A stretch of DNA of 64,000 nt. Origin: an uncultured Gammaproteobacteria bacterium (GTDB taxonomy: Bacteria > Patescibacteriota > Patescibacteriia > Magasanikbacterales > GWA2-37-8). The translations under genes were made by a program, and so were the position numbers. The stretch lies in assembly GCA_964535515.1 (NCBI GenBank), contig CAZHTA010000001.1, forward strand, positions 49,707 to 113,706. The letters are read 5' to 3'. Positions 1 through 61,666 of the stretch are shown here, piece after piece. A model generated the notes under the pieces. The model saw only the letters and a list, made by a program, of their open reading frames with translations. It was not told the origin of the DNA and searched no databases. Each line of letters opens with the position of its first letter. The first letter of the stretch is position 1.

Positions 1-757
1 CTCTTCCAATATCGCCAGTACTTAAAACATTAATTGAAAGATCGTCGTGAAAATTTGCTACATTTTTAGGTAAGTAGTGAGAAAAATCAACGCTCGCAAT
101 TACCAAACTACCCATTGGTAAAACCTCATACAATTTCGAAGCTAACCCATCTACCAAATCATCATTTTTTACATTCTTAACTATCAAAGGAACAATTTCC
201 GTACTTGGCCAAGTGTTTTTAATAAACGCCGTTAAAGCACCAATACTATGTTCTTTGGTTAAAGCCGCGTCATCAAGACTAACCAAATTGCTCGATACTA
301 ATGAATCAATAATTTGTGAATTAGAAGACAAAACACCCACTTCTGTTTTCCATCCTAACTTGGAAGATAAAATAAAACTATTACCCGCTTGAAAATGATT
401 TGGTCCAATCACCACTACCACTGGTGGACGTAAATTTTTCATCACCCCAAAAACACCCGCCATATAATTACCAGCCACCAAATGATGTGGTAATACCAAT
501 GACATTATCGTGCCCGACGGTGCAATGGTTGGTCGTGGATAATCAAAAAAATCCTTGTACATCTCTTCTGGAGCAAAGATAGCCGGAATAACATCAGTTG
601 AATTTTGATTGACTGTTGCTGCTAAAACCGGTTCTGGCAATTCCTTGGTATATTTGCCAATTTCCGGACCAAACCAAAAACCCAAGGCTCCTGCACCAAA
701 AGCCAAGCAAACACTCAATATTAAAAAAGCTGCTTGTTTAAATCTCATATATCCCAT
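1..757 (-). CDS. AmmeMemoRadiSam system protein B / MEMO1-family protein, 5' part (gene runs off the window start)
   Basis: Manual minus-strand translation from ATG at 757 (alt 748): MGYMRFKQAAFLILSVCLAFGAG...SLVLPHHLVAGNYMAG...VVVIGPNHF, motifs typical of Memo-like proteins. No stop before the window edge, so it is absent from the ORF track. Confidence 0.5.
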   Translation of the reverse strand, partial: MGYMRFKQAAFLILSVCLAFGAGALGFWFGPEIGKYTKELPEPVLAATVNQNSTDVIPAIFAPEEMYKDFFDYPRPTIAPSGTIMSLVLPHHLVAGNYMAGVFGVMKNLRPPVVVVIGPNHFQAGNSFILSSKLGWKTEVGVLSSNSQIIDSLVSSNLVSLDDAALTKEHSIGALTAFIKNTWPSTEIVPLIVKNVKNDDLVDGLASKLYEVLPMGSLVIASVDFSHYLPKNVANFHDDLSINVLSTGDIGR

Positions 758-851
758 ATTTTACTCTAAAAAAAGATAAAAAACAACCCTTTAAAACCGT
801 GCTTCTAACAAAAACCTACCACGCATTCTCCCTTCTCTTTCTCCAATAATT

Positions 852-905
852 TTAGAGAAAAAGAAGGCGGCATGGTAGGCTCTGTCGATAACATTCGCCG
901 CCCTT
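852..905 (-). terminator. Rho-independent terminator after the zinc-ribbon gene
   Basis: GC hairpin aagaagggcggc...gccgccttctt followed by a T-run on the minus strand. Confidence 0.4.
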
Positions 906-906
906 C

Positions 907-1122
907 TTACTCATACTTTGGCCTGAGATAGCCACAGTGCGGACACTTCTCGATCGACGAGAGGTGGATACGAGTAAGAGTTGCACACCCACAGATCCAC
1001 AACCTGCAGACGTGGGTTTCCCACTTACCGTGTTTAACCGCACTTTTCCCTCCTCCGAGCAAACGGGCGATGATCTCATCCACCGAGGGCGACACCTTGT
1101 CTTTCCCTTGTGTGTCGGTCAT
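907..1122 (-). CDS. small zinc-ribbon protein (71 aa), high-GC island 1
   Basis: ORF with AAGGAGG SD 5 nt upstream of ATG. CxxxxCxC...CPHCG cysteine pattern. About 58% GC versus about 37% backbone. Confidence 0.55.
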   Translation of the reverse strand: MTDTQGKDKVSPSVDEIIARLLGGGKSAVKHGKWETHVCRLWICGCATLTRIHLSSIEKCPHCGYLRPKYE

Positions 1123-1186
1123 TTTGTCCTCCTTTGGACAAGATGGTTATCTGCCTCTACCTTAGTCCAAAAAGAAATGACTGTCA

Positions 1187-1346
1187 AACAAAATAAAAAC
1201 ACGAACGCCGCCCCGGGTGGGACGGCGGTGTTTCTGGAATTTAGAAAGACAGGACAATGTCCACGATGGACATCAGGATGGCAGTGCCGGCGGGGATATA
1301 GAAATTATCCCATTTACCGCCTAACACCTCAAAGACAGGGGCAGAG
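1187..1346. repeat. Direct repeat copy 1 (about 160 bp, near-identical to 2673-2832): a displaced terminator plus the 3' end of the membrane-protein gene
   Basis: caaaataaaaacacgaacgccgccccgggtgggacggcggtgtttctgg...gacaggggcagagc occurs twice with 2-3 mismatches. This copy diverges right after ggggcagagc, so it is an orphan 3' gene fragment plus terminator. Confidence 0.85.
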
Positions 1347-1408
1347 CCTCGAGGAATAGAATCATTTAAAAACACAACTCCCGTCATAAAGACGAGAGCA
1401 TGAAGAGA

Positions 1409-1564
1409 CTAGCTGCACGCGAACCGATCGTTGCTGTTCCAGTCGTTGCTCTCCCAATTGAAGTTCAGCACCCAGCGATCGCCGTTGAAGTAGAGGTAAG
1501 CGACATGGCGATTACCGTCCGAGTTGCGCAAAATATGCAATGCGTCTTCCGTGACACCACCCAT
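1409..1564 (-). pseudogene. orphan 51-aa ORF paralogous to the C-terminus of the 184-aa protein at 1884-2438
   Basis: About 120 bp at 1405-1530 is about 80% identical to 1900-2020. Minus-strand translation MGGVTEDALHILRNSDGNRHVAYLYFNGDRWVLNFNWESNDWNSNDRFACS versus the 184-aa C-term GRHVAYLFFDGVRWVLYFSWEGFDWYSDDRFACS. Intact ATG..TAG, but below the ORF-track length cutoff. Confidence 0.45.
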
Positions 1565-1883
1565 CGAATACTCTCCGGGTTGAATAGAATTTGAAGACGT
1601 GATCTCCCTAACACATCACACCGAGTATCTTCATTTTATCACTTCAATCTTACTCTGCAGCAAGCCTTGGCCGACCACATTCCGAAGTTTGAAATGACGA
1701 GATTCTACACGCCCAAATCGTAACCAGGGCAGTGTCTGTAAAATCTGAATTAATTTTATCAAAATTTGACATAAAAGCAAAGACCCCCGTCCCAACATCC
1801 ACCTTGTGAGTGAACGCCGAGACGAGGGTCTGAGGAACCGAGGACCGGACAGTTGACGCCGAAGCGCCGAGTGTCCGAGTGAC

Positions 1884-2438
1884 CTAGGTTCCGAGAGACT
1901 CGCTGCACGCGAACCGATCGTCGCTGTACCAGTCGAAGCCCTCCCAAGAGAAGTACAGCACCCAGCGAACGCCGTCGAAGAAGAGGTAAGCGACATGGCG
2001 ACCACCGCCCGAGCCGCGCAACTTCGTGCCGGGCAACACAATGTATTTGCCCTGCATTTCCGTCGGGATCAGCTCGTCCTGGTGGTCGACCAAGTACTGG
2101 CCGTCGACCAGGCCGTAGTTGCCCTTCAGCACCACGGCGAGCCTGCGCATCGCCTTGGTGTTGCAGGACTCACCGGACTTGCAGAAGGGGACGAACGTGA
2201 TCTTCTTGCCCACGAAATCCGAGGGCTCGACGTCGTCCTCGACCGTGTACCCGTACTGGGCGGCGATGGCGTCGGACGGGAACGAGGGACGAGGCAGCTT
2301 CGTAACGGGCTGAGACGACACCCGCTCGACGATGAGCTTGCACTCACCGCGGAGTGCGGCGCGCGCGACATCCGTGCCGCCGAGCATGTTGAGGAGCGCC
2401 TCATCCTCTCCTCGACTCCAATCACTGTACTTTCCCAT
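1884..2438 (-). CDS. hypothetical protein (184 aa), high-GC island 1 cargo
   Basis: ORF with ATG at 2438. Non-biased amino-acid composition, unlike the overlapping antisense ORFs. No family recognised. Confidence 0.55.
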   Translation of the reverse strand: MGKYSDWSRGEDEALLNMLGGTDVARAALRGECKLIVERVSSQPVTKLPRPSFPSDAIAAQYGYTVEDDVEPSDFVGKKITFVPFCKSGESCNTKAMRRLAVVLKGNYGLVDGQYLVDHQDELIPTEMQGKYIVLPGTKLRGSGGGRHVAYLFFDGVRWVLYFSWEGFDWYSDDRFACSESLGT

Positions 2439-2672
2439 TTCGTGGACTCTCTTTCAGGGCTGAAAGCCCGAAAAGCAATTTGCCCCTGCCCGGGGCCCAG
2501 GTCTCCCTCTCATGAGAAGAGCTTTTGTGCCACTTATGAAAAATGACACCAAAGTTCTTCTGATGATTTTAACTAATTTGTTCACTAATTATATAAAGAA
2601 CCGCTTATTCTAAATCCTAGAATAACAAGAAATTATAGCAAAAAACAGAGAATTTGTCAAACTTCCCCACCA

Positions 2673-2832
2673 ACAAAATAAAAACACGAACGCCGCCCCG
2701 GGTGGGACGGCGGTGTTTCTGGAATTTAGAAAGACAGGACAATGTCCACGATGGACATCAGGATGGCAGTGCCGGCGGGGATATAGAAATTATCCCATTT
2801 ACCACCTAGCACCTCAAAGACAGGGGCAGAGC
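2673..2832. repeat. Direct repeat copy 2 (functional 3' end plus terminator of the membrane-protein gene)
   Basis: Near-identical to 1187-1346. Contains the stop of the 230-aa gene and a GC-rich hairpin followed by TTTTTATTTT on the minus strand. Confidence 0.85.
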
Positions 2833-3418
2833 ACACGCCTACCGTATACACGGTTACAACATGCCAGAACCCCAGTTCCACAGGAAAGAGCGGTGTAGCA
2901 AAGTGGTAGACCCCCACCCAGATTGCAGCGATGATTCCAACCCCCAATCCGAACAGCATGCCCCCGCGCGACTTACCGTTTTTAAAACGGGGCCCCATGG
3001 GAAAACGCTTGCCCAGCTTAGAGATCGGATCTACTACCCCCAACAGCAACCCAGCCAGCGCACAGATCCAGCGTGGACAGAAAACCCAAGCCACTGTACA
3101 CCCGAGAATCGTCTGAAGGGTAGTAGTCAAATCACCGCTCTTCTCGTTGTCCCTTGTGAAATGACTCACAAAGGCCGTGACCCGGTCAGCCCAGACAGCC
3201 GAGCTACGTTGCGCTGTCTTTCTAACCACCTCGACGGCAGAGAAGACAGACGCCACGATAATCAAAGCCGCCCAAACCACCTGGTTGCCATAGAACAACG
3301 GGTGGAGCACCAGCCAGGCCGAAAGCCCGACCAAGAAGTGGAGCAACCCGCGCTTCACTTCTGTCCCTGTCGACCACTTACCCCAATGGGTGAGGTGGTC
3401 TTGCCATTCCTTTTTCAA
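2726..3418 (-). CDS. polytopic membrane protein, CTP_transf_1-like (CdsA/dolichol-kinase/CarS superfamily) candidate
   Basis: 230 aa with multiple TM helices. C-terminal DPISKLGKRFPMGPRFKNGKSRGG resembles the S..KR..G.KD.G..GHGG motif of the cytidylyltransferase family. TTG start with GGGGGAGG just upstream. High GC. Confidence 0.5.
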   Translation of the reverse strand: MKKEWQDHLTHWGKWSTGTEVKRGLLHFLVGLSAWLVLHPLFYGNQVVWAALIIVASVFSAVEVVRKTAQRSSAVWADRVTAFVSHFTRDNEKSGDLTTTLQTILGCTVAWVFCPRWICALAGLLLGVVDPISKLGKRFPMGPRFKNGKSRGGMLFGLGVGIIAAIWVGVYHFATPLFPVELGFWHVVTVYTVGVCSAPVFEVLGGKWDNFYIPAGTAILMSIVDIVLSF

Positions 3419-3489
3419 TTCCTCCCCCTTTAAGATAAATGATCTGATTCAGTTTTATCACACTGCTCAAAAAAAATCAAGATTAAAAA

Positions 3490-3530
3490 AGACCCCGATT
3501 TTTTCGAGGTCTTTTACAAATATTGTATAT
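3490..3530 (-). terminator. rpoC terminator (bidirectional hairpin)
   Basis: aaaagaccccgattttttcgaggtctttt hairpin flanked by A and T runs, directly downstream of the rpoC stop. A near-identical copy lies at 42784-42814. Confidence 0.6.
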
Positions 3531-3535
3531 TTTGA

Positions 3536-6500
3536 TTACTGTTTAAAACCAGTACCGGCTGGAATTAAACGACCGATAATCACATTCTCTTTCAAACCTT
3601 CCAAGTAGTCAACTTTACCGGTAATGGCGCTGTTGATCAATACTTTAGCGGTCTCTTGGAACGAAGCTGAAGACAAGAAACTCTGAGTGGAAAGCGCAAC
3701 GCGAGAGATGCCTAAAAGCAATTCTCGAGCAGTTGCTAAAGTACCACCATTTTTCTTGGCCAATCGATTGGCAAACTCTAACTGAGATTTTTCTACCACT
3801 TCACCTGGCAACAACTCAGTTTCACCCGCATCTTCTACGTATACACGCGAGAACATTTGTTTGATCAAAAGCTCTACGTGTTTGTCGTTCACTTTCTGAC
3901 CTTGAGAGGAGTAAATATTCTGAATCTCTTCCAATACATAGCGTTGTACTGCTGGCCGACCAGAAAGCTCAAACAATTCTTGCAAACTAATACTGCCATT
4001 TGTCATGCGCTGTCCTTTTTCCGCGACATCACCTTCTTTGACTAACATCTTGTACCCGGTTGGCACGATGTATTCACGTATTTTTGGACCGACGTAAGAC
4101 AAAGTAATATTATTCTTAACAATTTTTACCTCACTGGTATATTTAGCAGTTACTTCTTCGCCAGTAGCACCACGCACTACTATCACCTGATCTTTTTGAA
4201 CAGTATCACCATCTTTAGCCATCACTTCGTCTTCAGCAGTAACCTTGATCTTTGTTTCATCCATACCTTCAAAGTGAACACGGATGATTTTCTGACCACG
4301 ACGACCTTCAAAAATCTTTTTACCACTAGCAGAAGTAACAATTTTTCCATCGGCATCTTCTACTTCAATCTTACCCGCTACCTCAGACAAAATTGCCTTG
4401 TGCTTTGGCATGCGATTTTCAAATAACTCTTCAACGCGTGGCAAACCTTGGGTAATATCGCCTCCACCAGCCACACCACCGGCATGGAAAGTACGCAAAG
4501 TCAACTGAGTACCTGGTTCACCGATAGACTGAGCAGCAATCGTACCTACCGCTGTACCAAATTCTACTGGACGGTTATGAGCCAAATCATTACCATAGCA
4601 CTTACGACAAACACCCTTTGGTAATTTACATTGCAAAACACTACGCACATGAACTGACTCAAGTTTGTTATCATCAATCAAACGAGCAGCTTCGTCGATA
4701 ATCACCTCACCAGTTTTAACAATCGTCTTACCATCAGCTATTACATCAGCTAAAGCATAACGACCCCAAACACGATCAGATAATTTTTCACCCATCTGCT
4801 TAGATTGTTCAACAGTAAATATTTCACCAGTAGTATCGCCACAGTCATCTTCCAAAACAACAACATCTTGAGATACATCTACTAAACGACGAGTTAAGTA
4901 ACCAGCATTAGCCGTGCGAAGCGCCGTATCAGACAAACCTTTTCTCGTACCGTGAGAAGAGATGAAATATTCCAATACATCAAAACCATCTTTGTAGTTA
5001 CCTTTTACTGGCAGCTCGATAACATCACCGGATGGTGATACCACCAAACCTTTCATACCGATGACCTGACCTAACTGACCCCAGGTACCACGCGCGCCTG
5101 AATCAATCATCGCAAACACTGGACCATTCTTGTCCAAAATCTCTTGGTTATGTGCCAAGATTTTTTCTTTAGCCGTAGTCCAGATTTCCAAAATCTTAGC
5201 ATAGCGCTCAGCTTGAGTTAACAAACCTTCTTGATATTGGTCTTCCAACTCACGAATCTGTTTGTCAGCCCCTTCCAAAATCGCTGGCTTTTCTACCACT
5301 GGTGGAAAATCAGCAAAGCCTAAAGAGTAACCAGATTTAGTAACATAGCGGAAACCAAGATTTTTCAATTCATCCAAGAAGTAAGCAGTTTCCTGTTGAC
5401 CATAGTACTCAAGACAATAACGGATGATCTCGGCCAATTTTTTAGTGTTAATAGTCTCGTTGTAATATTTTAATTTTTCCGGCAAAATTTCATTAAACAA
5501 GACGCGACCAATTGTAGTCTCGATTAATAATTTATCACCTTCAGCAAATTTATTCTTTGCTTCCACGATTTTAACATTAATACGTTCGTGCAAATCAATA
5601 CGTCGGACTTTGTAAGCCAACTTAGCATCACGCTCAGAGTAAAAATATTTCTTTACTTCACCAACGTCTTTGCTTTCCGTACGAGTTAAATAGTAACAAC
5701 CCAAAGCAATATCCTGTTTAGGAGTAATAACCGGCTGGCTAGTAGCAGGTTTCAAAAGATTCTTTTCTGCAGCCATTAGGTTATCTGCTTCCCAACGTGC
5801 TTCTGCGGTTAAAGGCAAATGCACAGCCATCTGATCGCCGTCGAAATCAGCGTTAAACGCTGTACAAACCAACGGATGCAAATGAATGGCCTTACCTTCT
5901 ACGAGACGAGGGTGGAAAGCTTGGATACCAAGACGATGCAAAGTAGGAGCACGATTCAAGAATACACGAGTAGTTCTAGTTAATTCTTCCAAAATATCCC
6001 ACACTTCATCATGTTCGCCTTCAATGAAACGAGAAGCCGAACGAACATTGTGCGCTAATTCACGTTTGATAATCTCACCGATGATAAACGGTTTGAAAAG
6101 TTCCAAAGCCATGCGTTTTGGCAAACCACATTCATCAATATTTAAAGTTGGGCCAACTACGATTACGGAACGGCCAGAGTAGTCAACACGTTTACCAAGC
6201 AAGTTCTGACGGAAACGACCCTGTTTACCTTTCAAGATATCAGCTAAAGAACGCAACTGACGTTTTTGACCAGTAGCGGCGATAACCGTTTTAGAATGAC
6301 GTGCGTTGTTATCAATCAAAGCATCAACTGCTTCTTGCAACATACGCTTCTCATTACGACAGATAACCTCAGGAGCATCCAATTCTAACAAACGACGTAA
6401 ACGATTGTTGCGGTTAATTACGCGACGATACAAATCGTTCAAATCAGAAGTAGCAAAACGACCACCATCTAACGCAACCATCGGACGTAAATCTGGCGGG

Positions 6501-7414
6501 ATCACTGGGATACAACGCATAATCATCCACTCTGGACGAATACCATTAACCGCTAAACTCTTTAATAATTTCTTACGACGAACCAAGCGCTCTAATTTAG
6601 CACCTTTAGATTTTTCCTGTTCAGTAGCAATCTGCTTGATTGTCTCTTCTAAATTAATTCTTTCGAGCAAACGATAAACACCTTCAGCACCAATCGCAGC
6701 TTCAAACAAATGACCAAAGCGTAAAGAAAGATCTTGATATTTATTCTCGGAAATAACCTTCATCATCTGAACCTCTTTCAAATCTTTGTCTGCCTGTTGG
6801 AAATCTTCTTCCAAAGATTTGTTTTTACGTTCGGTTTCTTCTTGAATAGCATTCAACGCTTCTTTGCCTAACTTCTGATCATTAGCATTTTTAATTGCTG
6901 TTTCATGATCACGCTCAATCTGTTTCTTTTTTGTTTTAAATTCTTGACGCAACAAATCAATTGTCTGCTTCTTGGCGTTCTCGTCAACATGCATGATGAT
7001 AAAAGCAGCAAAGTAAATAACTTTCTCTAATGCTTGTACCGACATGTCTAACACCAAACCAACTTTGGAAGGAACAGAACGTAAGAACCAAATATGCGAT
7101 ACTGGAGCAGCCAACTCAATATGGCCCATACGCTCACGACGAACGAGAGAAGTAGTTACTTCTACGCCGCACTTATCACAAACAATTCCTTTGTAACGGA
7201 TCTTCTTGTATTTTCCACAGTAACATTCCCAATCTTTGGTTGGACCAAAAATTTCTTCCGCAAACAAACCACCTTTTTCTGGTTTTTGTGTGCGATAGTT
7301 AATAGTCTCTGGTTTGTTCACTTCACCATATGACCATTCCCGAATTGTTTCAGGAGATGCCAAACGCAAGCGAATGGCGTCGAAGTCTATGGAACGAATA
7401 AGGTCTCGATTCAT
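3536..7414 (-). CDS. rpoC: DNA-directed RNA polymerase subunit beta'
   Basis: 1292 aa. N-terminal zinc-binding CYCGKYKKIRYKGIVCDKCGVEV and the NADFDGD catalytic motif. Confidence 0.97.
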   Translation of the reverse strand: MNRDLIRSIDFDAIRLRLASPETIREWSYGEVNKPETINYRTQKPEKGGLFAEEIFGPTKDWECYCGKYKKIRYKGIVCDKCGVEVTTSLVRRERMGHIELAAPVSHIWFLRSVPSKVGLVLDMSVQALEKVIYFAAFIIMHVDENAKKQTIDLLRQEFKTKKKQIERDHETAIKNANDQKLGKEALNAIQEETERKNKSLEEDFQQADKDLKEVQMMKVISENKYQDLSLRFGHLFEAAIGAEGVYRLLERINLEETIKQIATEQEKSKGAKLERLVRRKKLLKSLAVNGIRPEWMIMRCIPVIPPDLRPMVALDGGRFATSDLNDLYRRVINRNNRLRRLLELDAPEVICRNEKRMLQEAVDALIDNNARHSKTVIAATGQKRQLRSLADILKGKQGRFRQNLLGKRVDYSGRSVIVVGPTLNIDECGLPKRMALELFKPFIIGEIIKRELAHNVRSASRFIEGEHDEVWDILEELTRTTRVFLNRAPTLHRLGIQAFHPRLVEGKAIHLHPLVCTAFNADFDGDQMAVHLPLTAEARWEADNLMAAEKNLLKPATSQPVITPKQDIALGCYYLTRTESKDVGEVKKYFYSERDAKLAYKVRRIDLHERINVKIVEAKNKFAEGDKLLIETTIGRVLFNEILPEKLKYYNETINTKKLAEIIRYCLEYYGQQETAYFLDELKNLGFRYVTKSGYSLGFADFPPVVEKPAILEGADKQIRELEDQYQEGLLTQAERYAKILEIWTTAKEKILAHNQEILDKNGPVFAMIDSGARGTWGQLGQVIGMKGLVVSPSGDVIELPVKGNYKDGFDVLEYFISSHGTRKGLSDTALRTANAGYLTRRLVDVSQDVVVLEDDCGDTTGEIFTVEQSKQMGEKLSDRVWGRYALADVIADGKTIVKTGEVIIDEAARLIDDNKLESVHVRSVLQCKLPKGVCRKCYGNDLAHNRPVEFGTAVGTIAAQSIGEPGTQLTLRTFHAGGVAGGGDITQGLPRVEELFENRMPKHKAILSEVAGKIEVEDADGKIVTSASGKKIFEGRRGQKIIRVHFEGMDETKIKVTAEDEVMAKDGDTVQKDQVIVVRGATGEEVTAKYTSEVKIVKNNITLSYVGPKIREYIVPTGYKMLVKEGDVAEKGQRMTNGSISLQELFELSGRPAVQRYVLEEIQNIYSSQGQKVNDKHVELLIKQMFSRVYVEDAGETELLPGEVVEKSQLEFANRLAKKNGGTLATARELLLGISRVALSTQSFLSSASFQETAKVLINSAITGKVDYLEGLKENVIIGRLIPAGTGFKQ

Positions 7415-12861: not shown

Positions 12862-13160
12862 AAAAGTTGTTCTTATATCGAATAATTGAATTATATCCCA
12901 CCCTAAAACATAAATCAAACAAGATTGACAATTTGCCTAAAATAGGCTAATTTAGCTTGGGATAACTGGAAAAAGGAGGAAGAACTTGAGACACGTCTTG
13001 ATGTCCGTCAAGAAGCGCGGCATGAAGTTCGGACGTCGCCGGGTGTTCTAACCCCGACTTCTACGGCTACACCATCTCATATCCCCCATGCACGCCTGCT
13101 GCACTCCCATCCTGCAGGCATTCCATTTTTATAACTACTTTGGTAATTATAAAATAGAAT

Positions 13161-13194
13161 AAAAAACCACTGCTTTAAAACAGTGGTTTTTTAT
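13161..13194. terminator. bidirectional terminator T1 (degenerate copy of the guaB terminator at 16124-16156)
   Basis: aaaaaaccactgctttaaaacagtggtttttt. Lies at the left edge of high-GC island 2. Confidence 0.6.
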
Positions 13195-13367: not shown

Positions 13368-15824
13368 CTAGGCCTGGTGTTCGTCGTTGGTGAGACGGGT
13401 CTTGACCTCGTCCCACACACCGGCGATGAACTCCACCGCGAGAACGGGGTTCCTGACGACGATATCGGCCACCATCGGATAGCGATTGCCGAGCATTTCG
13501 AGCAGGACCTCCACGACCTCGTGGTGCATCGCCAGCATCACGACCTTGCCGATGTCGACGAGACCGTCCGTGCGACCGGCAGGGATGAAGGACGGCGGCG
13601 GGATGAACACCATGGAGGGCGAAGCCACGCCATCTTCCATGCCATCCCGAGTTTCGGGCGGTTGGTCGAGAGCCGTATTGTCGGCGTCGTCATGTTGACC
13701 CACCAGCCCATCGGGGAACGGCTCAGCCGACTCGACGACCTCGTCGACACGACCTTCCGGCTCCCTCGACTCCTCCGACGAGATGTAACCGAACTGTGCC
13801 GACTGGAGTTGAGCGAACGCCTCGTCGTAGCCGCCTTCCCCGAAGAAACCGCTGTCCCGAATGACGTCGAGGGCGGCCTGGCCGCCATCGATCGTGGAGA
13901 AGCGCTCCCGAGGAATGGTCTCCCCGGTCACACTCTTCCACTCGTAGACGATCACGGTCGCACCACTTCCCTCGATCCGTTCGAGTTGCAGTCTACCGGC
14001 AGGAGTGGCCCTGATGGGCTCCGCCAGAACGGATTCCTGCTCGAGCACGGACTCGATGACCTCGGGGGTCGGATCGAGATCTTCGATCGGCGGCGCAACA
14101 CCCACGATGGGCACGACGTCGTTGGCCTCGGCGGGTGCCGCGGCCATCGCGTCGTCGTTGACCTCGATCGAAGCCGCGTTGGCGTCAACCAGGTCGACGA
14201 CCGCCTCGACGACAGACACCGGGGTTGGTGTAGCCGACGGAACGTAGGTGAACGGTTCATCGGTCCGGGGATGCTTGATGAACTTGATCTGACGATCAGC
14301 AACACCATCACCCACGAACTCCACGTAGCCCCAGTCACGAACCGTCCTGCAATATATCGAGGCCGAACAGGTCTCGTTCAGGTTCACCTTGGGACATTGC
14401 AGTCCCGAGATGCGCATGACCTCGGCGTAAGGCCCGGTGCGGCCATTCACGAGTTCGAACAGCTGAGCCAGACGCTCCTGCCGATCCATGCGAGCACCCG
14501 ACAACGCCGGCACCTTGGTCCAATCGAACTCGTCCACCACGATGGCGACGGGCTCGATGACCTCAGAGGTCGGCTCGAGCTCTTCAACCGGCGGCGCAGC
14601 ACTCACGATGGGCGCAGCGTCGTTGGTCTCGGCGAGGACGGGTTCTTCACGATCGGCACGCTTGCCCACGACCAGGCCGTCCAGATCTAGAACCATGTCG
14701 TTGGGATCACCCGCCCACACGAACTTGTCGGGATGATCCTTGTTGGGCTCGAGCGTTCCGTAACCCAAGTTCTCCATGAGGCGCAAAGCCTCACGGGCAC
14801 CACCCTTGTTGACGAAGCAGCCCACACCTTCCCAGTCGAGGCTGCCCCACGGCACATCCTTACCCTGGTAATGAGCGTAGAACTTCACGGCCACATCGAG
14901 GGGCGCGGAGAGCGACTCAGCGGGGCTATCGGCGTTGACCGCGACCGGCTCGGCCGTCGCCACGTTAGCGTCGGTCAAACCACCGCCGTTCGCCTCCGAT
15001 CCGACACCGAAGTCCTTGATGGCCATCGGATCGAGCAAGTAAATCTTGTGCTCGATCGTCAAGCTGTCCTGCACCTGCTTGTTCTGCAACTGGCAGAGGA
15101 CCATAACGGCCTCATCACCGGCCTTGATCAGCCGACTGTAGAGGCCCAGGATGTTGCTGGAGACAGCGTAGGTGGGGTGTTTGGTCGAACCCTTGTTCAC
15201 CACCCACTTGTGCCGTTCCATTTCCTTGAGCACTTCGACGACGAGGTTGCGCCTCTGCTGAACACCTTCCTGCTTGCCCAGGATCTCCTTGTACAGATCT
15301 CCCAGGCCGTGCTCGGCACCTTCGTCCAACACCTCCATAATGGCACCGAACAACTCGGCCTGTTTGGCCTTGCTCATGACTTGCCTCCCTTCTTGCGCTT
15401 TCATCCAGGCTTCTATCATCTCGCCTTTGTTCGAGACTCTCCTCTCTTGAGCAAGATCATCTTCGTCTTCTTCCGGGGCTTCACCTTTCGGCTCTACTCC
15501 GAGCGAAGCGAGGATCGTACGTGTGGTTTCACCTCCAGCCTTTTTTCGTTTTGCTTTCTCTGCTTGCCACTCACGCTCCTCGAAGACACCAGACGTGCCT
15601 TCTTCGGAGAACCCTTCACGATTCTTCCTTCCCTGCACGCAACGCCAACAACAGCTACGCTTTTTCTCCATCGCGTTTGCATCGAGGTAATCGTCGAGAC
15701 ATTGCTGCAACGACAACACCTTCCGGCGAGACTTGCACGGGAACGTGGTAGCCGCAAGTTGCGCCTCCAGCTCTGGACACCCTTCTCGATACGAAGGGGG
15801 AGCGAACGGATCACTCTTGTCCAT
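13368..15824 (-). CDS. large acidic hypothetical protein with internal tandem repeats (818 aa from the SD-preceded ATG), high-GC island 2
   Basis: About 62% GC. GGAGGAGGTG directly before ATG at 15824. Internal repeat NDAAPIVSAAPPVEELEPTSEVIEPV versus NDVVPIVGVAPPIEDLDPTPEVIESV. The plus-strand ORFs over the same span have R/G/H-biased junk composition. Confidence 0.6.
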   Translation of the reverse strand: MDKSDPFAPPSYREGCPELEAQLAATTFPCKSRRKVLSLQQCLDDYLDANAMEKKRSCCWRCVQGRKNREGFSEEGTSGVFEEREWQAEKAKRKKAGGETTRTILASLGVEPKGEAPEEDEDDLAQERRVSNKGEMIEAWMKAQEGRQVMSKAKQAELFGAIMEVLDEGAEHGLGDLYKEILGKQEGVQQRRNLVVEVLKEMERHKWVVNKGSTKHPTYAVSSNILGLYSRLIKAGDEAVMVLCQLQNKQVQDSLTIEHKIYLLDPMAIKDFGVGSEANGGGLTDANVATAEPVAVNADSPAESLSAPLDVAVKFYAHYQGKDVPWGSLDWEGVGCFVNKGGAREALRLMENLGYGTLEPNKDHPDKFVWAGDPNDMVLDLDGLVVGKRADREEPVLAETNDAAPIVSAAPPVEELEPTSEVIEPVAIVVDEFDWTKVPALSGARMDRQERLAQLFELVNGRTGPYAEVMRISGLQCPKVNLNETCSASIYCRTVRDWGYVEFVGDGVADRQIKFIKHPRTDEPFTYVPSATPTPVSVVEAVVDLVDANAASIEVNDDAMAAAPAEANDVVPIVGVAPPIEDLDPTPEVIESVLEQESVLAEPIRATPAGRLQLERIEGSGATVIVYEWKSVTGETIPRERFSTIDGGQAALDVIRDSGFFGEGGYDEAFAQLQSAQFGYISSEESREPEGRVDEVVESAEPFPDGLVGQHDDADNTALDQPPETRDGMEDGVASPSMVFIPPPSFIPAGRTDGLVDIGKVVMLAMHHEVVEVLLEMLGNRYPMVADIVVRNPVLAVEFIAGVWDEVKTRLTNDEHQA

Positions 15825-16123
15825 CACCTCCTCCTTCTGGTTTGGGTTTCTTTCGCATACGCCTGTACGCAAACTGCGGACACCACTTACGGGGCGACCC
15901 TTTGTTTCTCACCTCCAACATCATCCCTCCTCCCGGTGTGAAAGTTGAGTGCTAGCCTAAAACGATCGAAACCGTCTATGTTACCTTTTATATATGCAAA
16001 ACTGCCTAAGCAGTTTGTTAGGTTGGAAAAGAACTAATCGTTTCTCCTCCTTTCAGCTTTGTATTCTACATATTTAATACTAAAAGTCAACCATTCATAC
16101 TAAAACTACGCACTTCTAAAACA

Positions 16124-16156
16124 CAAAAAAACACCGCTTTAAACGGTGGTTTTTTG
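16124..16156. terminator. guaB terminator T2
   Basis: aaaaacaccgctttaaacggtggtttttt immediately downstream of the guaB stop (minus strand). Confidence 0.65.
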
Positions 16157-16170
16157 TTGCTAATTTTTTA

Positions 16171-34190: not shown

Positions 34191-34895
34191 ATGAAAATAG
34201 CCAAAACGACCAACGTCAACCCGACTGACTTAAACTACGATCACTACACACGCAGTCAATATGACCGAGACATTGTAAATGCAATCCCTTTTCACAAAGA
34301 GATTCACTTACAACTCGCTGATTATATCACCAAACACTTTGCCTCTAATTGTGCAGCGGAAATAATCGATTTAGGCACTGGCACTGCTCTTACGAGTGCT
34401 GTCATTCGATCAATTTTACCACAAGCCCATTTTGACTTAATAGATTTTTCCAAACAGATGCTTAGTGGTGCAAAGAAAAAAATGGGTACAAAAAATATCC
34501 GCTATATTTTAGCTGATTTTGCCACACTAAAATTTGATAAAAAATATGACATCGCAGTTACTGTGATCGGTTTACACCATCAAACTGTCAGCGGCACTAA
34601 AAAATTATTCAAAAAAATTTACCACAATCTAAAACCAGGAGGTATATTAATCATCGGTGATTTAGTAACATACACAGACAAAAACAAAGCCGCCCTGAAC
34701 AATGCCTTACACTACAAACATCTCGTAGACAAAGCCACAAACGAAAAAGTGCTAACTGAATGGGCACACCACCATATGTATCTAAACGATCTCAAACCGT
34801 TAGAAGATCAAATTCATTGGATGAAAGACGTTGGATTCAAAATAGTATGGCAATTTAACAAATGGAACACGGCGTTGATTATTGGGAAAAAATAA
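34191..34895 (+). CDS. class I SAM-dependent methyltransferase
   Basis: Motif I IIDLGTGTA. Post I LIDFS. LKPGGILI. Its start overlaps the upstream stop, suggesting coupling with the aminotransferase. Confidence 0.75.
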   Translation: MKIAKTTNVNPTDLNYDHYTRSQYDRDIVNAIPFHKEIHLQLADYITKHFASNCAAEIIDLGTGTALTSAVIRSILPQAHFDLIDFSKQMLSGAKKKMGTKNIRYILADFATLKFDKKYDIAVTVIGLHHQTVSGTKKLFKKIYHNLKPGGILIIGDLVTYTDKNKAALNNALHYKHLVDKATNEKVLTEWAHHHMYLNDLKPLEDQIHWMKDVGFKIVWQFNKWNTALIIGKK

Positions 34896-34922
34896 ACAAA
34901 AAACCCGACCGAAAGGTTGGGT

Positions 34923-34994
34923 TTTTTGTTTGAGCGGGTAACGGGAGTCGAACCCGTATCTCGTCCTTGGCAAGGACGCATAATAGCCGCTATA
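34923..34994 (-). tRNA. tRNA-Gly (anticodon GCC)
   Basis: Minus strand gcgggtatagtatagcggctattatgcgtccttgccaaggacgagatacgggttcgactcccgttacccgct. Anticodon loop ttgccaa. Confidence 0.8.
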
Positions 34995-35916: not shown

Positions 35917-35969
35917 ATTAAAAACAAAGGAAATAAAAAACCACCATACTTAAAACGGTGGTTTTTTAT
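35917..35969. terminator. bidirectional terminator T3: 21-bp perfect inverted repeat arms
   Basis: caaaggaaataaaaaaccacc-atacttaaaac-ggtggttttttatttcctttg. Sits at the left edge of high-GC island 4. Confidence 0.65.
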
Positions 35970-36059
35970 TTCCTTTGTCGACAAAGTGAAGTGCCGGAGA
36001 GAATGCCGGCTCACTATCACCTCTATTGAATAGCCGAGGGACAGGCCAAGAAAGAACTA

Positions 36060-41840: not shown

Positions 41841-42461
41841 TTAATTCCACATACACCACGGCAAAGCTATGCACGGACCTTCAGTCCCCATACTTGCACA
41901 CATACTAGAGAAATTCTCTAGCTGGCCAGTACACTTAAAGGCTGGGGCAACGGCCATCCCGTTCCATTCACATGCCGAACTCAAACATTCTGCCTGAAGC
42001 TTAGGGTTGCAAATAGTACTCACGCTAGTACCTGGTTTTATAGTACAAGTGTTAGCGGTTGGCACACCAGGATTAATACCCGAATTAACCTCTTCCGTCA
42101 CCTTCCCTGCCCCCACCTTCCCTAACACAAAATTCGTAATCGCATAAGCCATAGAAATGACTGCCAAACCGATAATTGCGGCTTCTAGTATGTTTTTGGC
42201 TTTGGTTACGTGTTCTTCATTGCCTTGGGCAGTCATCCAACGAATACCGGCGTATAGAACCAGAATAAAAAAGACAAAATAAACCAAATACAACGCCGTA
42301 TTGATAATTGTGGTTGTTACAGACTCTGGCGTATCATTTTTGCTATAGCTTGTCTTGCTAACAGTCTCATCTAATCCATACTGCGCCTTAACCGGTGTTA
42401 ATCCAAACAAAAAAACCGCTAACAAAAATACGGGCAAAAGTAATAAAAGATATTTATTCAT
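41841..42461 (-). CDS. secreted two-helix VirB2/TrbC-like (T4SS-pilin-like) family protein, paralog 1 (Cys-rich C-terminal domain)
   Basis: Signal peptide MNKYLLLLLPVFLLAVFLFG. Conserved hairpin LYAGIRWMTAQGNEEHVTKAKNILEAAIIGLAVISMAYAITNFV, shared with 8 paralogs at 44036-48910. Confidence 0.55.
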   Translation of the reverse strand: MNKYLLLLLPVFLLAVFLFGLTPVKAQYGLDETVSKTSYSKNDTPESVTTTIINTALYLVYFVFFILVLYAGIRWMTAQGNEEHVTKAKNILEAAIIGLAVISMAYAITNFVLGKVGAGKVTEEVNSGINPGVPTANTCTIKPGTSVSTICNPKLQAECLSSACEWNGMAVAPAFKCTGQLENFSSMCASMGTEGPCIALPWCMWN

Positions 42462-42557
42462 AATTAAATATTTACCCTTAAATAATACCATAACTTGATT
42501 TTTTTTACAAAACATACTATTATATTGACACTTACCCCAAATGGATATTGAATATTT

Positions 42558-42629
42558 GCCCTCATAGTTTAATGGATAAAACACGACCCTTCTAAGGTTG
42601 AGTTGTATGTTCGATTCCTGCTGGGGGCA
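42558..42629 (+). tRNA. tRNA-Arg (anticodon TCT), one T-stem mismatch (coordinates +/-1)
   Basis: gccctca-ta-gttt-aatggata-aaac-a-cgacc-cttctaa-ggttg-agttg-gtatg-ttcgatt-cctgc-tgggggc-a. Acceptor contains a G-U pair. Confidence 0.6.
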
Positions 42630-42690
42630 CGGGTAGTTGAAAAATTATATATATTAAGATATAATCTCAACTAAGATAAAGTCCTGGTAG

Positions 42691-42768
42691 GGGTGTCCTT
42701 GGTATAACGGTTATTACGTCGGTTTGTGGAACCGACAACACGGGTTCGACTCCCGTAGGACACCCCCA
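42691..42768 (+). tRNA. tRNA-His (anticodon GTG) with encoded G-1 and CCA
   Basis: g-ggtgtcc...gtcggt-ttgtgga-accgac...cgggttcgactcccg-ggacacc-c-cca. Confidence 0.85.
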
Positions 42769-42783
42769 CCCGGATTTTTTAAA

Positions 42784-42814
42784 AGACCTCGATTTTATTC
42801 GAGGTCTTTTGTTT
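42784..42814. terminator. terminator hairpin, near-identical copy of the rpoC terminator
   Basis: aaaagacctcgattttattcgaggtctttt versus aaaagaccccgattttttcgaggtctttt at 3497-3527. Overlaps the last codons of the glycosyltransferase gene. Confidence 0.55.
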
Positions 42815-43931
42815 TTAATATTTTCTGTAATATTTCTTCCACACCATTTCCAAATGATAATAGCTTTATTCTTTCTAATATTTTTATATACCCCTCTTCA
42901 TCAGAAAAAAAACTACTTACTGTTTGTGATAACCGCCAAATCCTTGGTTCATACTTGCCATACTTGTTGTCCACCACAAAATCACGATTGCCTTTCTCCT
43001 GTCCCCAGATATAGCTAGTTAAAATTATTGGACGACCAATAATTAAAGATTCAAAAACTACTGCCGGTCCCGCTTTGCCTACCACCAAATCTGCTGCCTC
43101 CATTAATTCTTCCACGTTCTCTGCAAAACCAACAACTGATAATATTTTACTTGGGTAACTGCTTCGTAAACGACTCGCTTGTTCAAAAAATTTCTGCTCT
43201 CGCCCACAAACGACAATTAAACAAAAGTCGTCAGACAAATCTACTAGTGAACGAACAACCTCTCCTCCTTTATACATTCCATCACCACCACCAGCCACTA
43301 AGACTATCTTTTTATCAAGCGGCAAACCTAACTTTCTCCGCATCTCCATCTTGTCCGATACACGCGTCTGCAAAAACTTTTTGTTTATCAACGGTGCTGT
43401 CACGAAAACATTCTTTTCTCCAACACCCTGCTCGAGGGCTATCTTTTTTGCTAATTCGGAAAAAACAAAATATTTAATCTCTTTTTCAAAAAACCAAACT
43501 CGTGGTACAGAAAAAGGATCAGTTACAACCGACCACACTTCTGTCTGTGGACTTACCTTTCTAACAGCCGTTAAAAGTGGCGGGGTAATAAAAAAATACA
43601 ACGAAATTACAATGTCAAATTTGCCCTCTTTTACTAGGCTATCCATGTGCTTTTGATTGCGAAACATGTTCACAAACAAATACATTGCCCAAGAATATTG
43701 CGAGATCCAATAAAACATCCACCACAGTAATATGAAATGATTGCTGTTAATCCACAACGCATACCCCTTGTGTAACAACCATTTAGACAACCTATTACTC
43801 TCAGCTCCAGCATCAACTAAAACAGACTGAGCTAACCCAGAATATTTTTCTTCTATCTCTTTGGCTAACGCTTTAGCAGCACCACTGTGCCCACCACCAG
43901 CATTAACGTAAAATATACCTATCTTTTTCAT
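42795..43931 (-). CDS. GT28-family diacylglycerol glycosyltransferase (MGDG synthase/UgtP-like)
   Basis: N-terminal KKIGIFYVNAGGGHSGAAKAL and C-terminal MurG-like domain. Confidence 0.7.
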   Translation of the reverse strand: MKKIGIFYVNAGGGHSGAAKALAKEIEEKYSGLAQSVLVDAGAESNRLSKWLLHKGYALWINSNHFILLWWMFYWISQYSWAMYLFVNMFRNQKHMDSLVKEGKFDIVISLYFFITPPLLTAVRKVSPQTEVWSVVTDPFSVPRVWFFEKEIKYFVFSELAKKIALEQGVGEKNVFVTAPLINKKFLQTRVSDKMEMRRKLGLPLDKKIVLVAGGGDGMYKGGEVVRSLVDLSDDFCLIVVCGREQKFFEQASRLRSSYPSKILSVVGFAENVEELMEAADLVVGKAGPAVVFESLIIGRPIILTSYIWGQEKGNRDFVVDNKYGKYEPRIWRLSQTVSSFFSDEEGYIKILERIKLLSFGNGVEEILQKILKTKDLE

Positions 43932-44035
43932 AATCGAAACAAACGAAAGAAATGAAAAAAATGATTATTCATTCCCAAACAAGTAAAAACTATATATTTC
44001 AAAACTCTCCTTTTCTAAGGAGAGTCTAACGATGA

Positions 44036-44500
44036 TTAAGGACAAGATAAACCATGACATTCAATCGTGCCACGTTGTTCTATATACTGAATATTTTCAT
44101 AATCAGTCCACCGGCCAAATACGATCTTTGCTACCATTAAAGTAATAGAATAAGCAGAAACAATAATTGCCAGACCAATAGTTGCTTGAAATAACAAAGT
44201 TTTTGATTTAGTTACCTTTTCTTCATTACCACCAGCCGTCATCCACAAAAATCCAGCATACAATGTTAAGACAATAAATATTATACCAATAAACTCTAAC
44301 GCTGTCCGAATAATATTAACAACAGTTACACGTGGATCTTGAGCTTCACCAAACCCTGCCCCTTTTTCTCCAGCAGCTGCCTGCAGCTGCTCAGCAATCT
44401 GAGCTTGAGTACTGCTTGCCGCAGCATTTACCAAAGAAAACGACAAAGCACTTCCCAAAAAGACCAAAGATATAAACAAAAAAACAAAAACCTTTTTCAT
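44036..44500 (-). CDS. VirB2/TrbC-like family paralog 2
   Basis: Signal peptide MKKVFVFLFISLVFLGSALS. Hairpin LYAGFLWMTAGGNEEKVTKSKTLLFQATIGLAIIVSAYSITLMV. Start moved to the internal ATG. Confidence 0.55.
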   Translation of the reverse strand: MKKVFVFLFISLVFLGSALSFSLVNAAASSTQAQIAEQLQAAAGEKGAGFGEAQDPRVTVVNIIRTALEFIGIIFIVLTLYAGFLWMTAGGNEEKVTKSKTLLFQATIGLAIIVSAYSITLMVAKIVFGRWTDYENIQYIEQRGTIECHGLSCP

Positions 44501-44507
44501 AAAACAA

Positions 44508-45008: not shown

Positions 45009-45024
45009 AAATTTATTTACTAAC

Positions 45025-45459: not shown

Positions 45460-45472
45460 AATTTATAAAATG

Positions 45473-46060: not shown

Positions 46061-46171
46061 ATTTATCTTATATATTGGACACTGGAAAAAATACCTTCTT
46101 TCCACTAGCCAATAAAACTTCTTCCAACAGGGGGTTGCGCGCGCGAACCCCCTGTAGAAAGATAAAAACTA

Positions 46172-47261: not shown

Positions 47262-47264
47262 ATA

Positions 47265-61652: not shown

Positions 61653-61666
61653 ACTAAATCTAAAAA

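Follow-up and report, generated by a model that had tools for sequence, protein, structure and literature searches.

The left end of the window (the whole 64-kb stretch of DNA that was analyzed) carries a gene for a 230-aa membrane protein and a Memo-like gene, with approximately 1.9 kb of additional DNA between them. The flanking genes, the additional DNA, and a long direct repeat are arranged as follows.

2..748 (-): Memo-like gene (AmmeMemoRadiSam system protein B), the left flank, cut by the window edge
795..2671 (no strand): insertion relative to empty-site relatives, between the terminator of the 230-aa gene and the Memo-like gene
907..1122 (-): orphan gene for a Cys-rich, zinc-ribbon-like protein of 71 aa; strong Shine-Dalgarno sequence, terminator-like hairpin with U-run at 855-904
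1187..1347 (-): repeat copy A, an orphan duplicate of the 3' end and terminator of the 230-aa gene, read here as a rearrangement scar
2672..2832 (-): repeat copy B, the functional one, which holds the final 35 codons of the 230-aa gene together with its stop codon and intrinsic terminator
2712-2691 plus T-run (-): hairpin and T-run of the intrinsic terminator of the 230-aa gene, within copy B
2726..3418 (-): gene for the 230-aa polytopic membrane protein, a conserved host gene outside the insertion

The direct repeat is 161 nt long, and its two copies differ at only two positions (1319 G versus 2804 A and 1324 A versus 2809 G), both of which are synonymous in the 230-aa frame (Leu204 and Gly205). 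No near-match to it occurs elsewhere in the 64 kb, so the pair is not a product of chance. The original prediction had placed the 3' end and terminator of the 230-aa gene in the right-hand repeat and had called the left-hand copy an orphan of the same 3' end; both statements hold. Copy A lies in a 48-aa ORF (1241-1387), for which there is no evident ribosome-binding site. The 230-aa protein matches P0002 exactly and has homologs (P0003 to P0005) at 45 to 69% identity. Its gene lies between rpoC and the Memo-like gene, an arrangement kept in three related contigs (L002, L004, and L005), and a fourth (L003) likewise has Memo downstream. We considered recent transfer of this GC-rich gene and rejected it, because the gene is GC-rich in all syntenic relatives. 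The description of its product as CTP-transferase-like is weakly borne out. The match to the NCBIfam CarS model is sub-threshold (E 0.052, 13 bits against a cutoff of 148 bits), as is that to CdsA (4q2e), the second Foldseek match of an AF2 model with pLDDT 61 (E 0.88, TM 0.37); Pfam gave no match, and a profile search of PDB sequences was also empty. A CdsA/CarS-like identity is thus a weak lead.

Four related contigs (L002 to L005) have an empty site, in which the homolog of the 230-aa gene and its terminator come directly before the Memo-like gene. Positions 1-1176 of L002 correspond to window positions 3856-2682, and positions 1179-1268 correspond to 789-699; the other three contigs are alike. 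At the two sites where the repeat copies differ, comparison with L002 to L004 favors neither copy as the ancestral one. Because the two genes are adjacent in all four contigs, we interpret approximately 795-2671 as an insertion and copy A as a duplicated scar. The claim that the cassette was inserted beside the 3' end of the 230-aa gene and is bounded by a duplicated gene end is therefore supported, and the empty-site variants that the original prediction had proposed looking for do exist. The 71-aa gene lies within the inserted region, outside the 161-nt repeats. It had been described as separately terminated, in agreement with its own Shine-Dalgarno sequence and its downstream hairpin and U-run.

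A second repeat, of 128 nt, pairs positions 1404-1531 with 1894-2021. Its copies are 87% identical, rather than about 80% as first estimated, and it too lacks a near-match elsewhere in the 64 kb and is not due to chance. Sixteen of the 17 mismatches fall on adenines of the copy at 1404-1531 (A>G 8, A>T 7, A>C 1), and 99 of the 100 non-A positions are identical (Fisher p = 5e-12 for the adenine bias). The sole non-A difference, TAG in the copy at 1404-1531 and GAG in that at 1894-2021, marks the 3' boundary, and a related locus, L001, shows it too. This is the pattern left by a diversity-generating retroelement (DGR), a system that alters the tip of one protein through error-prone reverse transcription. 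In a complete DGR, a reverse transcriptase (RT) with Avd reverse-transcribes the RNA of a template repeat (TR) and miscopies adenines, and the cDNA replaces a variable repeat (VR). Only residues encoded by TR adenines are rewritten, and here these belong mostly to AAY codons. The elements that we assign on this basis are listed below.

1377..1399 (-): hairpin and U-run just past the TR, in the same position in L001 and L007
1404..1531 (-): TR, the copy whose adenines are the variable sites, with eight AAY codons
1532..1780 (-): conserved non-coding leader upstream of the TR, probably supplying the promoter and the structured 5' portion of the DGR RNA
1783..1829 (-): target-gene terminator, a long hairpin of approximately 20-23 bp with T-run, kept in L001
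1834..1892 (-): nested hairpin with UUCG tetraloop directly 3' of the VR, a candidate DGR target-recognition hairpin or cruciform
1884..2438 (-): gene for the 184-aa DGR variable (target) protein, family members of which lie upstream of DGR RTs
1894..2021 (-): VR, codons 140-181 of the 184-codon target gene
2632..2660 (-): predicted consensus sigma-70-type promoter (TTGACA, 17 nt, TATAAT, with a TG extension; 12 of 12 hexamer matches)

All eight AAY codons of the TR are changed in the VR, the mismatches are distributed over codon positions 1, 2, and 3 as 10, 7, and 0, and each of the 13 changed codons alters the amino acid. The VR as it stands has been through DGR mutagenesis: leaving aside the one boundary base, every difference between the copies is at a TR adenine. 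The homology shared by VR and TR ends in a GC-rich stretch, CGGTTCGCGTGCAGC. When the window was scanned for further VRs belonging to this TR, scoring non-A positions only, 1894-2021 was the single match. The 51-aa ORF at 1409-1564 is a by-product of the TR. It had been seen as a diverged duplicate of the C terminus of the 184-aa protein, which is correct as far as the repeat is concerned; it is, however, a DGR template repeat and not a displaced orphan module, given that the differences lie almost only at its own adenines and that bAvd and RT genes stand beside the same pair in close relatives. Both proteins had been said to end in DRFACS, which is true of the 51-aa ORF, whereas the 184-aa protein continues from DRFACS into ESLGT.

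Small proteins in 477 clusters, with a conserved core and a variable tip, form the unannotated family of which the 184-aa protein is a member. Residues ~50-180 are modeled as a C-type-lectin-like fold, and neither a signal peptide nor a transmembrane segment is evident in the protein. Members of the family lie 0.9 to 1.5 kb upstream of DGR RTs in seven of the compared loci (L001, L007, L037, L010, L057, L065, and L019), and the sole homolog of the 184-aa protein found through a word index adjoins bAvd and RVT_1 genes. A leader of approximately 190 nt (2439-2625) separates the promoter from the target gene, and the DGR target in L018 shares part of this leader and the N terminus with the target in the window. 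Recent transfer of the GC-rich target gene was also considered and was rejected, since GC-richness of the target is a clade-wide trait. The nested hairpin past the VR lies in a 126-nt stretch whose fold has z = -8.5, and it is also found in L001 and L007, with a compensatory G-C to A-U change. The TR leader is about 80% identical to those of L001 and L007, while the N-terminal coding part of the target was not detected there at the DNA level; in a consensus fold of the leader based on two sequences only, eight pairs are kept through compensatory changes.

Broader searches added little to these assignments. Scans of the 230-, 184-, 71-, and 51-aa products against Pfam, NCBIfam, PHROGs, and PADLOC gave nothing above threshold, and an Rfam scan of 600-3700 gave chance-level matches only. 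The exact VR/TR pattern does not occur in the GTDB representative genomes. A metagenome scan found no relatives of the 184-aa protein, and the same was true of the 230-aa alignment. No match to the conserved spacer was found among viral contigs, nor to the 184-aa and 71-aa proteins in a phage collection searched with tblastn. The 71-aa protein has no detectable homolog, and its gene is absent from all 85 loci compared as well as from the empty sites; we therefore rejected it as a DGR accessory. The earlier statement that the function of every component is unknown still applies to the 71-aa ORF and no longer to the 184-aa gene and the 51-aa ORF, which are parts of a DGR.

The closest relatives of the cassette are complete DGRs. 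Two Candidatus Magasanikbacteria MAGs (L001 and L007) share 76% nucleotide identity with the window over VR, spacer, and TR, and in both the order target-VR-spacer-TR is followed by bAvd and reverse transcriptase genes. In L007, for example, the target gene (4554-5117) and its VR are followed by the TR (5460-5583), avd (5601-5939, minus strand), and the RT gene (5926-7017). We examined 81 RT loci of this clade, 54 of which have a detectable TR/VR pair; in 52 of these 54, the TR ends 374 to 464 nt (~420 nt) before the RT gene. The spacing from VR to TR in the clade is approximately 370 to 510 nt, and it is 490 nt in the window. Neither an RT nor an Avd was found in any frame of the 64 kb, the part of the 148-kb contig that was covered, with tblastn or with profile HMMs built from 81 RTs and 72 Avds. 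Homology to the complete DGRs stops about 25 nt past the TR hairpin, within an avd-like stub, which is followed by a short junction sequence.

1348..1363 (-): junction or filler of 16 nt between the putative avd remnant and copy A, unique in the window
1362..1388 (+): putative avd remnant, the last 7-8 codons (SFKNTTP in the window, LFKKETP in L007, LFQKEIP in L001)

With some 25 nt to go by, 1362-1388 is probably the remnant of the 3' end of avd. No second copy of the filler occurs in the window, which leaves a templated origin from nearby sequence unsupported.

The cassette is a degenerate representative of the DGR, which is a well-described system; we call it broken or orphaned because no reverse transcriptase accompanies it and because the 1.9-kb insertion that holds it bears a duplicated gene end. 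Specifically, window positions 1377-2660 on the minus strand are very probably the target-side half of a DGR of the clade found in Patescibacteria (the candidate phyla radiation, CPR), one that has lost avd and RT, with the 161-nt repeat as the scar of a rearrangement. The avd and RT genes, which normally lie approximately 20 and 420 nt past the TR, would have been lost here, and the avd-like stub would have become linked, by way of the 16-nt filler, to a duplicate of the 161 nt with which the 230-aa gene and its terminator end. The 1.9-kb insertion between genes that are adjacent in relatives would consist of the DGR piece, this duplicate, and the orphan 71-aa gene. The 161-nt repeat is therefore best read as a scar and not as a functional part; the rearrangement that left it may have either placed or truncated the DGR, with the 230-aa gene left intact. 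Candidate mechanisms include one-sided homologous plus illegitimate recombination, recombination with a circular intermediate and a subsequent internal deletion, and template switching during replication at the two terminator hairpins. We also considered a retro-copy, in which 2832-1348 would be DGR-RT cDNA of a read-through transcript, since the repeat ends exactly at the terminator T-run. We rejected it as the main model because it requires a DGR already downstream of the 230-aa gene and because it predicts the target and TR (2671-1348) after copy A, not the 71-aa gene. Two mismatches between the repeat copies, and zero or one at non-A positions of the TR/VR pair, are too small a basis for dating RT loss.

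A module without an RT in cis may be a recently frozen fossil, or it may rely on an RT elsewhere in the genome. In the latter case the promoter-target-VR-leader-TR module, with terminators of its own, would be a functional satellite that diversifies the 184-aa protein through a distant Avd and RT, an option whose chances we place between quite unlikely and somewhat unlikely. All the target-side cis elements are intact, namely the promoter, an open 184-aa frame, the hairpin, the leader, and a TR that matches the VR at non-A positions; approximately 10% of DGR-bearing complete genomes have several DGRs (PMC5758913), and DGRs with remote targets are known (PMC8144416). However, the near-constant distance between TR and RT in the clade offers no precedent for a detached TR among those loci, no RT or Avd occurs for at least 60 kb on one side of the locus, and a perfect TR/VR match is equally expected after recent loss. 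The duplicated gene end itself invites another account, that an integrative element entered the 3' end of the 230-aa gene site-specifically, that the 161-nt copies are attL and attR, that a replacement gene end came with the element, and that deletion later removed the recombinase, avd, and RT. The DGR part is indeed bounded by direct repeats containing the 3' end of the gene, copy B keeps the gene intact, relatives have empty sites, and both differences between the copies are synonymous, as expected of a copy from another strain; moreover, some related cassettes (L075, L083, and L046) are bracketed by direct repeats of a neighboring terminator or gene end. Yet no recombinase family was detected among the ORFs of the insertion (184, 51, 48, and 71 aa), and none stands beside the complete DGRs of L001, L007, and L075. 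Only 1.3 kb separates the repeats, the 71-aa gene is missing from the empty sites as well despite its position outside the repeats, and 161 nt of identity is long for an att core. We consider this account unlikely, and the earlier suggestion of site-specific integration finds no integrase inside the insertion to support it.

The layout of a full gene followed by its own 3' fragment and by a displaced neighboring 3' end has a superficial likeness to polymorphic toxin/immunity-type turnover, in which recombination would have displaced the 51-aa ORF from the 184-aa gene as an orphan C-terminal module. For T6SS effectors, such displacement by homology-facilitated illegitimate recombination is described (PMC5361080). 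Orphan modules, though, share a conserved 5' junction with a different 3' domain, whereas the copies here are collinear and differ by point changes at adenines; the family of the 184-aa protein combines a conserved core with a variable tip and in the compared loci lies upstream of an RT. No toxin, delivery, or immunity family was detected. The toxin/immunity reading in the original prediction is contradicted by the adenine-specific mismatches and is unsupported by any toxin domain, delivery domain, or immunity gene, and we give it almost no credence. An assembly artefact is improbable, though less so. Two strain variants, or a chromosome together with a repeat-bounded circle or tandem amplification, might have been threaded through the shared 161-nt repeat in this metagenome-assembled contig (147,940 bp, the one that carries P0002). 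The repeat exceeds typical k-mers, and both distinguishing bases lie within 30 nt of one repeat end, so that at the other end the sequence by itself does not secure the linkage. Against this, the two copies are distinguishable, and the four junctions (2833/2832, 2672/2671, 1348/1347, and 1187/1186) are unique and must exist in reads. However the contig was threaded, the junction between the avd stub and the interior of the 230-aa gene brings together sequences in an order that is both real and novel, and the identification of the DGR is independent of the repeat.

The reading that we prefer, a DGR that has lost avd and RT, can be compared with known systems. The first survey of DGRs in CPR was reportedly that of Paul et al. 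in 2017. CPR DGRs correspond to 'clade 2' of Roux et al. 2021 (PMC8144416). The cassette resembles them in its adenine-specific TR/VR pair, its VR at the 3' end of a small target gene, a target without a recognizable domain and with a modeled C-type-lectin-like fold, a hairpin past the VR, a VR-to-TR spacing of about 490 nt, and a GC-rich target gene in an AT-rich genome. Unlike them, it has no avd and RT in the whole 64 kb, and what comes after its TR is a duplicated piece of host gene. In the experimentally characterized prototype, the DGR of Bordetella phage BPP-1, avd is upstream of the TR and brt is downstream, unlike the order in this clade, which is target, TR, avd on the opposite strand, and RT. 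The cassette shares with the BPP-1 system (Mtd, TR, Avd, and Brt) the logic of adenine-specific TR-to-VR retrohoming, AAY codons in the TR, a GC-rich homology end, and a hairpin with a 4-nt loop just past the VR (PMC3240598), a hairpin that the BPP-1 DGR needs (PMC3240598). It differs from BPP-1 in that the 184-aa target is not a phage tail-fiber protein, no phage genes were found, and the RT is absent. The insertion, for its part, recalls homology-facilitated illegitimate recombination, a mechanism described in PMC3240628, and Campbell-type integration at a 3' end, in that a direct duplication preserves the end of the interrupted gene. The junction of avd stub, filler, and 230-aa gene looks illegitimate, and the other side is homologous. 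It differs from such insertions in that neither a donor nor a recombinase was identified, and the mechanism proposed here is drawn from the scar alone.

These results move the cassette from possible toxin turnover to targeted hypermutation by a DGR, and they give a role to a family of 477 clusters without a Pfam model, as DGR targets with a C-type-lectin-like fold (modeled). As a natural case of DGR decay or detachment the locus is a clean one, with target, VR, hairpin, leader, and TR intact and avd and RT gone, and the rearrangement is recorded by the empty-site relatives together with the duplicated gene end. If VR variation were found to be ongoing in reads, it would be evidence that a TR can work apart from its RT. 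A possible route by which cassettes relocate is hinted at by flanking duplications: the end of a neighboring gene is duplicated at DGR cassettes over 161 nt in the window, 41 nt in L075, 39 nt in L083, and 144 nt in L046. In a wider version of the same hint, CPR DGR cassettes or their parts would move to sites just past intrinsic terminators, duplicating the end of the neighboring gene, and this, if true, would be an undescribed route for the spread of 'immobile' retroelements.

Both direct repeats claimed in the original prediction are present in the window, one of 161 nt and one of 128 nt, and no third sequence resembling either was found within the 64 kb.

Direct repeats and the genes that they end
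1187-1347, long repeat (161 nt), copy A
2672-2832, long repeat, copy B, two mismatches to copy A
1404-1531, short repeat (128 nt), first copy
1894-2021, short repeat, second copy, 87% identical to the first
1884-2438, minus strand, gene for the 184-aa protein
2726-3418, minus strand, gene for the 230-aa membrane protein

Sixteen of the 17 mismatches between the short-repeat copies fall at adenines of the 1404-1531 copy, read on its coding (minus) strand, and comprise eight A>G, seven A>T, and one A>C change. The 35 G and 35 C bases of that copy are all unchanged, as are 29 of its 30 T bases, and 16 of its 28 A bases are changed (Fisher p = 5e-12 for the adenine bias). Mismatches at codon positions 1, 2, and 3 number 10, 7, and 0, respectively; all eight AAY codons of the 1404-1531 copy are changed in the 184-aa gene, and every changed codon (13/13) alters the amino acid. 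Such a pattern is the hallmark of mutagenic retrohoming in a diversity-generating retroelement (DGR), whose template repeat (TR) is 1404-1531 and whose variable repeat (VR) is 1894-2021, which forms the 3' end of the 184-aa gene. The sole non-adenine difference, TAG in the TR versus GAG in the VR, lies at the 3' edge of the homology; because it recurs in a related element, the exchanged segment probably ends here on its 3' side. The motif DRFACS is terminal in the 51-aa ORF and is followed by five further residues in the 184-aa protein.

The 184-aa protein has one word-index homologue, partial, from Candidatus Magasanikbacteria, and genes for bAvd and RVT_1 lie immediately downstream on its contig (L001). 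L001 and a second Magasanikbacteria contig (L007) share 76% nucleotide identity with the window over a span that runs from inside the target gene through the VR and a 360-nt spacer to just beyond the TR. L007 is a complete element, with genes for both the accessory variability determinant (Avd) and the reverse transcriptase (RT).

Features of the complete element L007
4554-5117, target gene (187 aa)
4992-5115, VR
5460-5583, TR
5601-5939, opposite strand, avd
5926-7017, RT gene

Scanning representative genomes with the L001 RT returned >575 relatives, mostly labelled as Patescibacteria/candidate phyla radiation (CPR) lineages. An adenine-biased pair was detectable in 54 of 81 loci examined, and in 52 of those 54 the TR ends 374 to 464 nt before the RT. 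In those loci the VR lies 370 to 510 nt before the TR, a range that the window's spacing of 490 nt fits. Directly after the VR is a nested hairpin with a UUCG loop, which is also present in L001 and L007, where an A-U pair replaces G-C as a compensatory change. Beyond it lies a long terminator hairpin. In the DGR of Bordetella phage BPP-1, a hairpin/cruciform just after the VR is required for efficient retrohoming (PMC3240598). The target gene has a perfect TTGACA-17-TATAAT promoter followed by a leader of ~190 nt. Unlike the N-terminal part of the target coding sequence, the ~250 nt before the TR are conserved at the DNA level, with a consensus fold that has eight compensatory pairs, drawn from two sequences only; this stretch probably represents the DGR RNA's promoter and 5' portion.

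An exhaustive profile-free search with the 184-aa protein (E up to 1e-3) recovered 477 cluster representatives, mostly of 140 to 210 aa, with a conserved core and variable C-terminal 35 to 40 residues, and no member of this family matched a Pfam family or a PDB sequence. In the fetched loci, members of the family are found a short distance upstream of DGR RTs, and an AlphaFold model of the 184-aa protein (56 sequences) is confident over residues 50-180. These features agree with published work, in which CPR DGR targets are without recognisable domains and VR regions are carried by C-type-lectin folds that include novel variants (PMC8144416). The last ~70 nt of the leader (2439-2509) and the first 48 codons are common to the window's target and the DGR target of another fetched locus (L018, 4475-4645), matching at 74% of nucleotides and 56% of amino acids; the C-terminal part and VR of the L018 target differ, an example of modular N-terminal/leader exchange among DGR targets.

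By mechanism and by descent, the locus belongs with the CPR clade of DGRs, but it is without two defining features, RT and Avd in cis. Neither was found in the window: tblastn with the L001 proteins and a six-frame HMM search built on 81 clade RTs and 72 clade Avds gave nothing better than E ~1. Past the TR hairpin (1399-1377), ~25 nt can still be aligned with the avd 3' ends of L001 and L007 (SFKNTTP in the window, LFKKETP in L007, LFQKEIP in L001), and homology then stops; a 16-nt filler unique in the window (1348-1363) joins this avd-like stub to copy A. From this succession we infer that the element is cut inside avd and that a duplicate of part of the upstream host gene follows. Every target-side part is intact, and of the 100 non-adenine positions compared between TR and VR, 99 match. 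Given that the 161-nt copies differ at 1.2%, a module inactive since the duplicate arose should show about one non-adenine TR/VR mismatch; therefore, the 99/100 match does not discriminate between an active and an inactive module. The locus is best filed as a truncated DGR member. DGRs in CPR are already well described, and what is new here is a TR-VR module that has no RT, is otherwise intact, and carries a rearrangement scar.

Copy B of the long repeat is the true end of the 230-aa gene, comprising its last 35 codons, stop codon, and terminator, a 9-bp G+C-rich hairpin with a T-run whose end is the limit of the repeat. Copy A is the same sequence as an orphan, and neither of the two mismatches (1319/2804 and 1324/2809) alters the protein when read in frame with the 230-aa gene. 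Copy B leaves that gene whole, and copy A is redundant. Four relatives of the 230-aa protein were recovered, 45 to 69% identical, and the gene lies after rpoC in three of the empty-site loci (L002, L004, and L005), as in the window. In L002-L005, the terminator of the 230-aa gene directly adjoins a Memo-like gene, so window ~795-2671 is an insertion of ~1.9 kb, which contains the DGR half, copy A, and the 71-aa gene. The alignment with L002 breaks correspondingly, L002 1-1176 matching window 3856-2682 and L002 1179-1268 matching window 789-699.

On these sequence comparisons, we read the 161-nt duplication as a scar left by the arrival or the truncation of the DGR, and each of three routes would fit. 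In route (a), a single homologous crossover in the 230-aa gene would be coupled to an illegitimate joint (avd stub, filler, interior of the resident 230-aa gene); this would be homology-facilitated illegitimate recombination, whose mechanism has been described (PMC3240628), and the two synonymous differences would then represent donor-recipient divergence. In route (b), a larger element carrying a gene-end copy would have integrated by Campbell-type or site-specific recombination, with later deletion of avd, RT, and other cargo. In route (c), replication would have switched template between both terminator hairpins. An outgroup comparison with L002-L004 at the two variable repeat sites was uninformative on which copy is ancestral.

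The original prediction had likened the repeat-bounded cassette to toxin/immunity turnover or to site-specific integration into a gene 3' end. A polymorphic-toxin cassette is contradicted by copies that are collinear with adenine-only differences, and no toxin or immunity signature was detected. Integration into a gene 3' end is partly right: the insertion, the duplication, and the empty sites are all present, but ORF and family scans found no recombinase in the insertion. That the arrangement is an assembly artefact is improbable, and even then the identification of a DGR would not be affected.

In the relatives, the terminator hairpin of the 230-aa gene is followed by a tail (GTTCGNGTTT..GGGTTGTTTTTT), of which the window seems to carry three copies.

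Occurrences of the terminator tail
782-812, beside the Memo-like gene
1187-1205, end of copy A
2672-2690, end of copy B

The three tails suggest repeated insertion at one point, and because the third lies at the Memo-proximal edge, the 71-aa gene may have entered there earlier, in an insertion of its own. No homologue of the 71-aa gene was found, and it occurs in none of the DGR loci examined.

The window has ~40% G+C, with a block of 50 to 65% at about 800-3430. The 230-aa gene is a conserved, syntenic host gene of deviant composition, with 50 to 58% G+C in every relative (L002 439-1131, L003 633-1325, L004 222-752) and flanks of 26 to 41%; its very rare family is represented by five sequences in 5.8 billion clusters. 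Across 42 DGR loci among L001-L085, mean G+C is 0.64 for VR, 0.52 for TR, 0.52 for the non-VR target, 0.37 for RT, and 0.41 for the whole locus, and the non-VR target exceeds the RT by >0.10 in 35 loci. Since the 230-aa gene is G+C-rich in all relatives and DGR targets are G+C-rich clade-wide, we rejected the G+C "island" as evidence of recent foreign origin.

Direct repeats of 38 to 144 nt, 87 to 94% identical, flank several complete CPR DGR cassettes.

Bracketing repeats in fetched DGR loci
L075, 4199-4239 and 7003-7043
L083, 995-1033 and 3913-3951
L046, 4353-4496 and 8727-8869
L036, 1475-1523 and 7110-7159
L067, 3091-3128 and 7748-7785

The L075 repeat is the upstream host gene's terminator hairpin, its second copy forming the last codons of the RT gene, and the first L046 copy spans the promoter region and first six codons of a ychF-like gene. 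In L075, L083, and L046, there is a hint that related cassettes are also bracketed by duplicated neighbour-gene ends. Such repeats resemble the window's 161-nt duplication and may bear on cassette relocation, or they may be genome-wide REP-like terminators.

Further G+C-rich blocks (53 to 63%) in the window hold long orphan ORFs.

G+C-rich orphan ORF blocks
13368-15872, minus strand, 834 aa
36060-37454, minus strand, 464 aa
21884-22204, minus strand, 106 aa

None of the three ORFs has a Pfam match, the 834- and 464-aa ORFs are also without PHROGs or PADLOC matches, and no VR for the window's TR was found in these blocks. The 834-aa ORF contains an internal 87-nt repeat (14047-14133/14548-14634, 85%). 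Five A-run/G+C hairpin/T-run elements, bidirectional terminator-like and 65 to 75% alike, also occur in the window; the G+C-rich block at 13.2-16.1 kb has one of them on each side, and another adjoins the block at 36.0-37.5 kb.

Terminator-like elements
13155-13194
16119-16158
34890-34929
35931-35970
61664-61703

Window 42127-47409 contains five to seven diverged direct repeats (56 to 158 nt, 62 to 84% identical, ~480 to 575 nt apart) in a run of minus-strand ORFs of ~170 to 240 aa, an arrangement resembling small paralogous genes in tandem that share a conserved motif.
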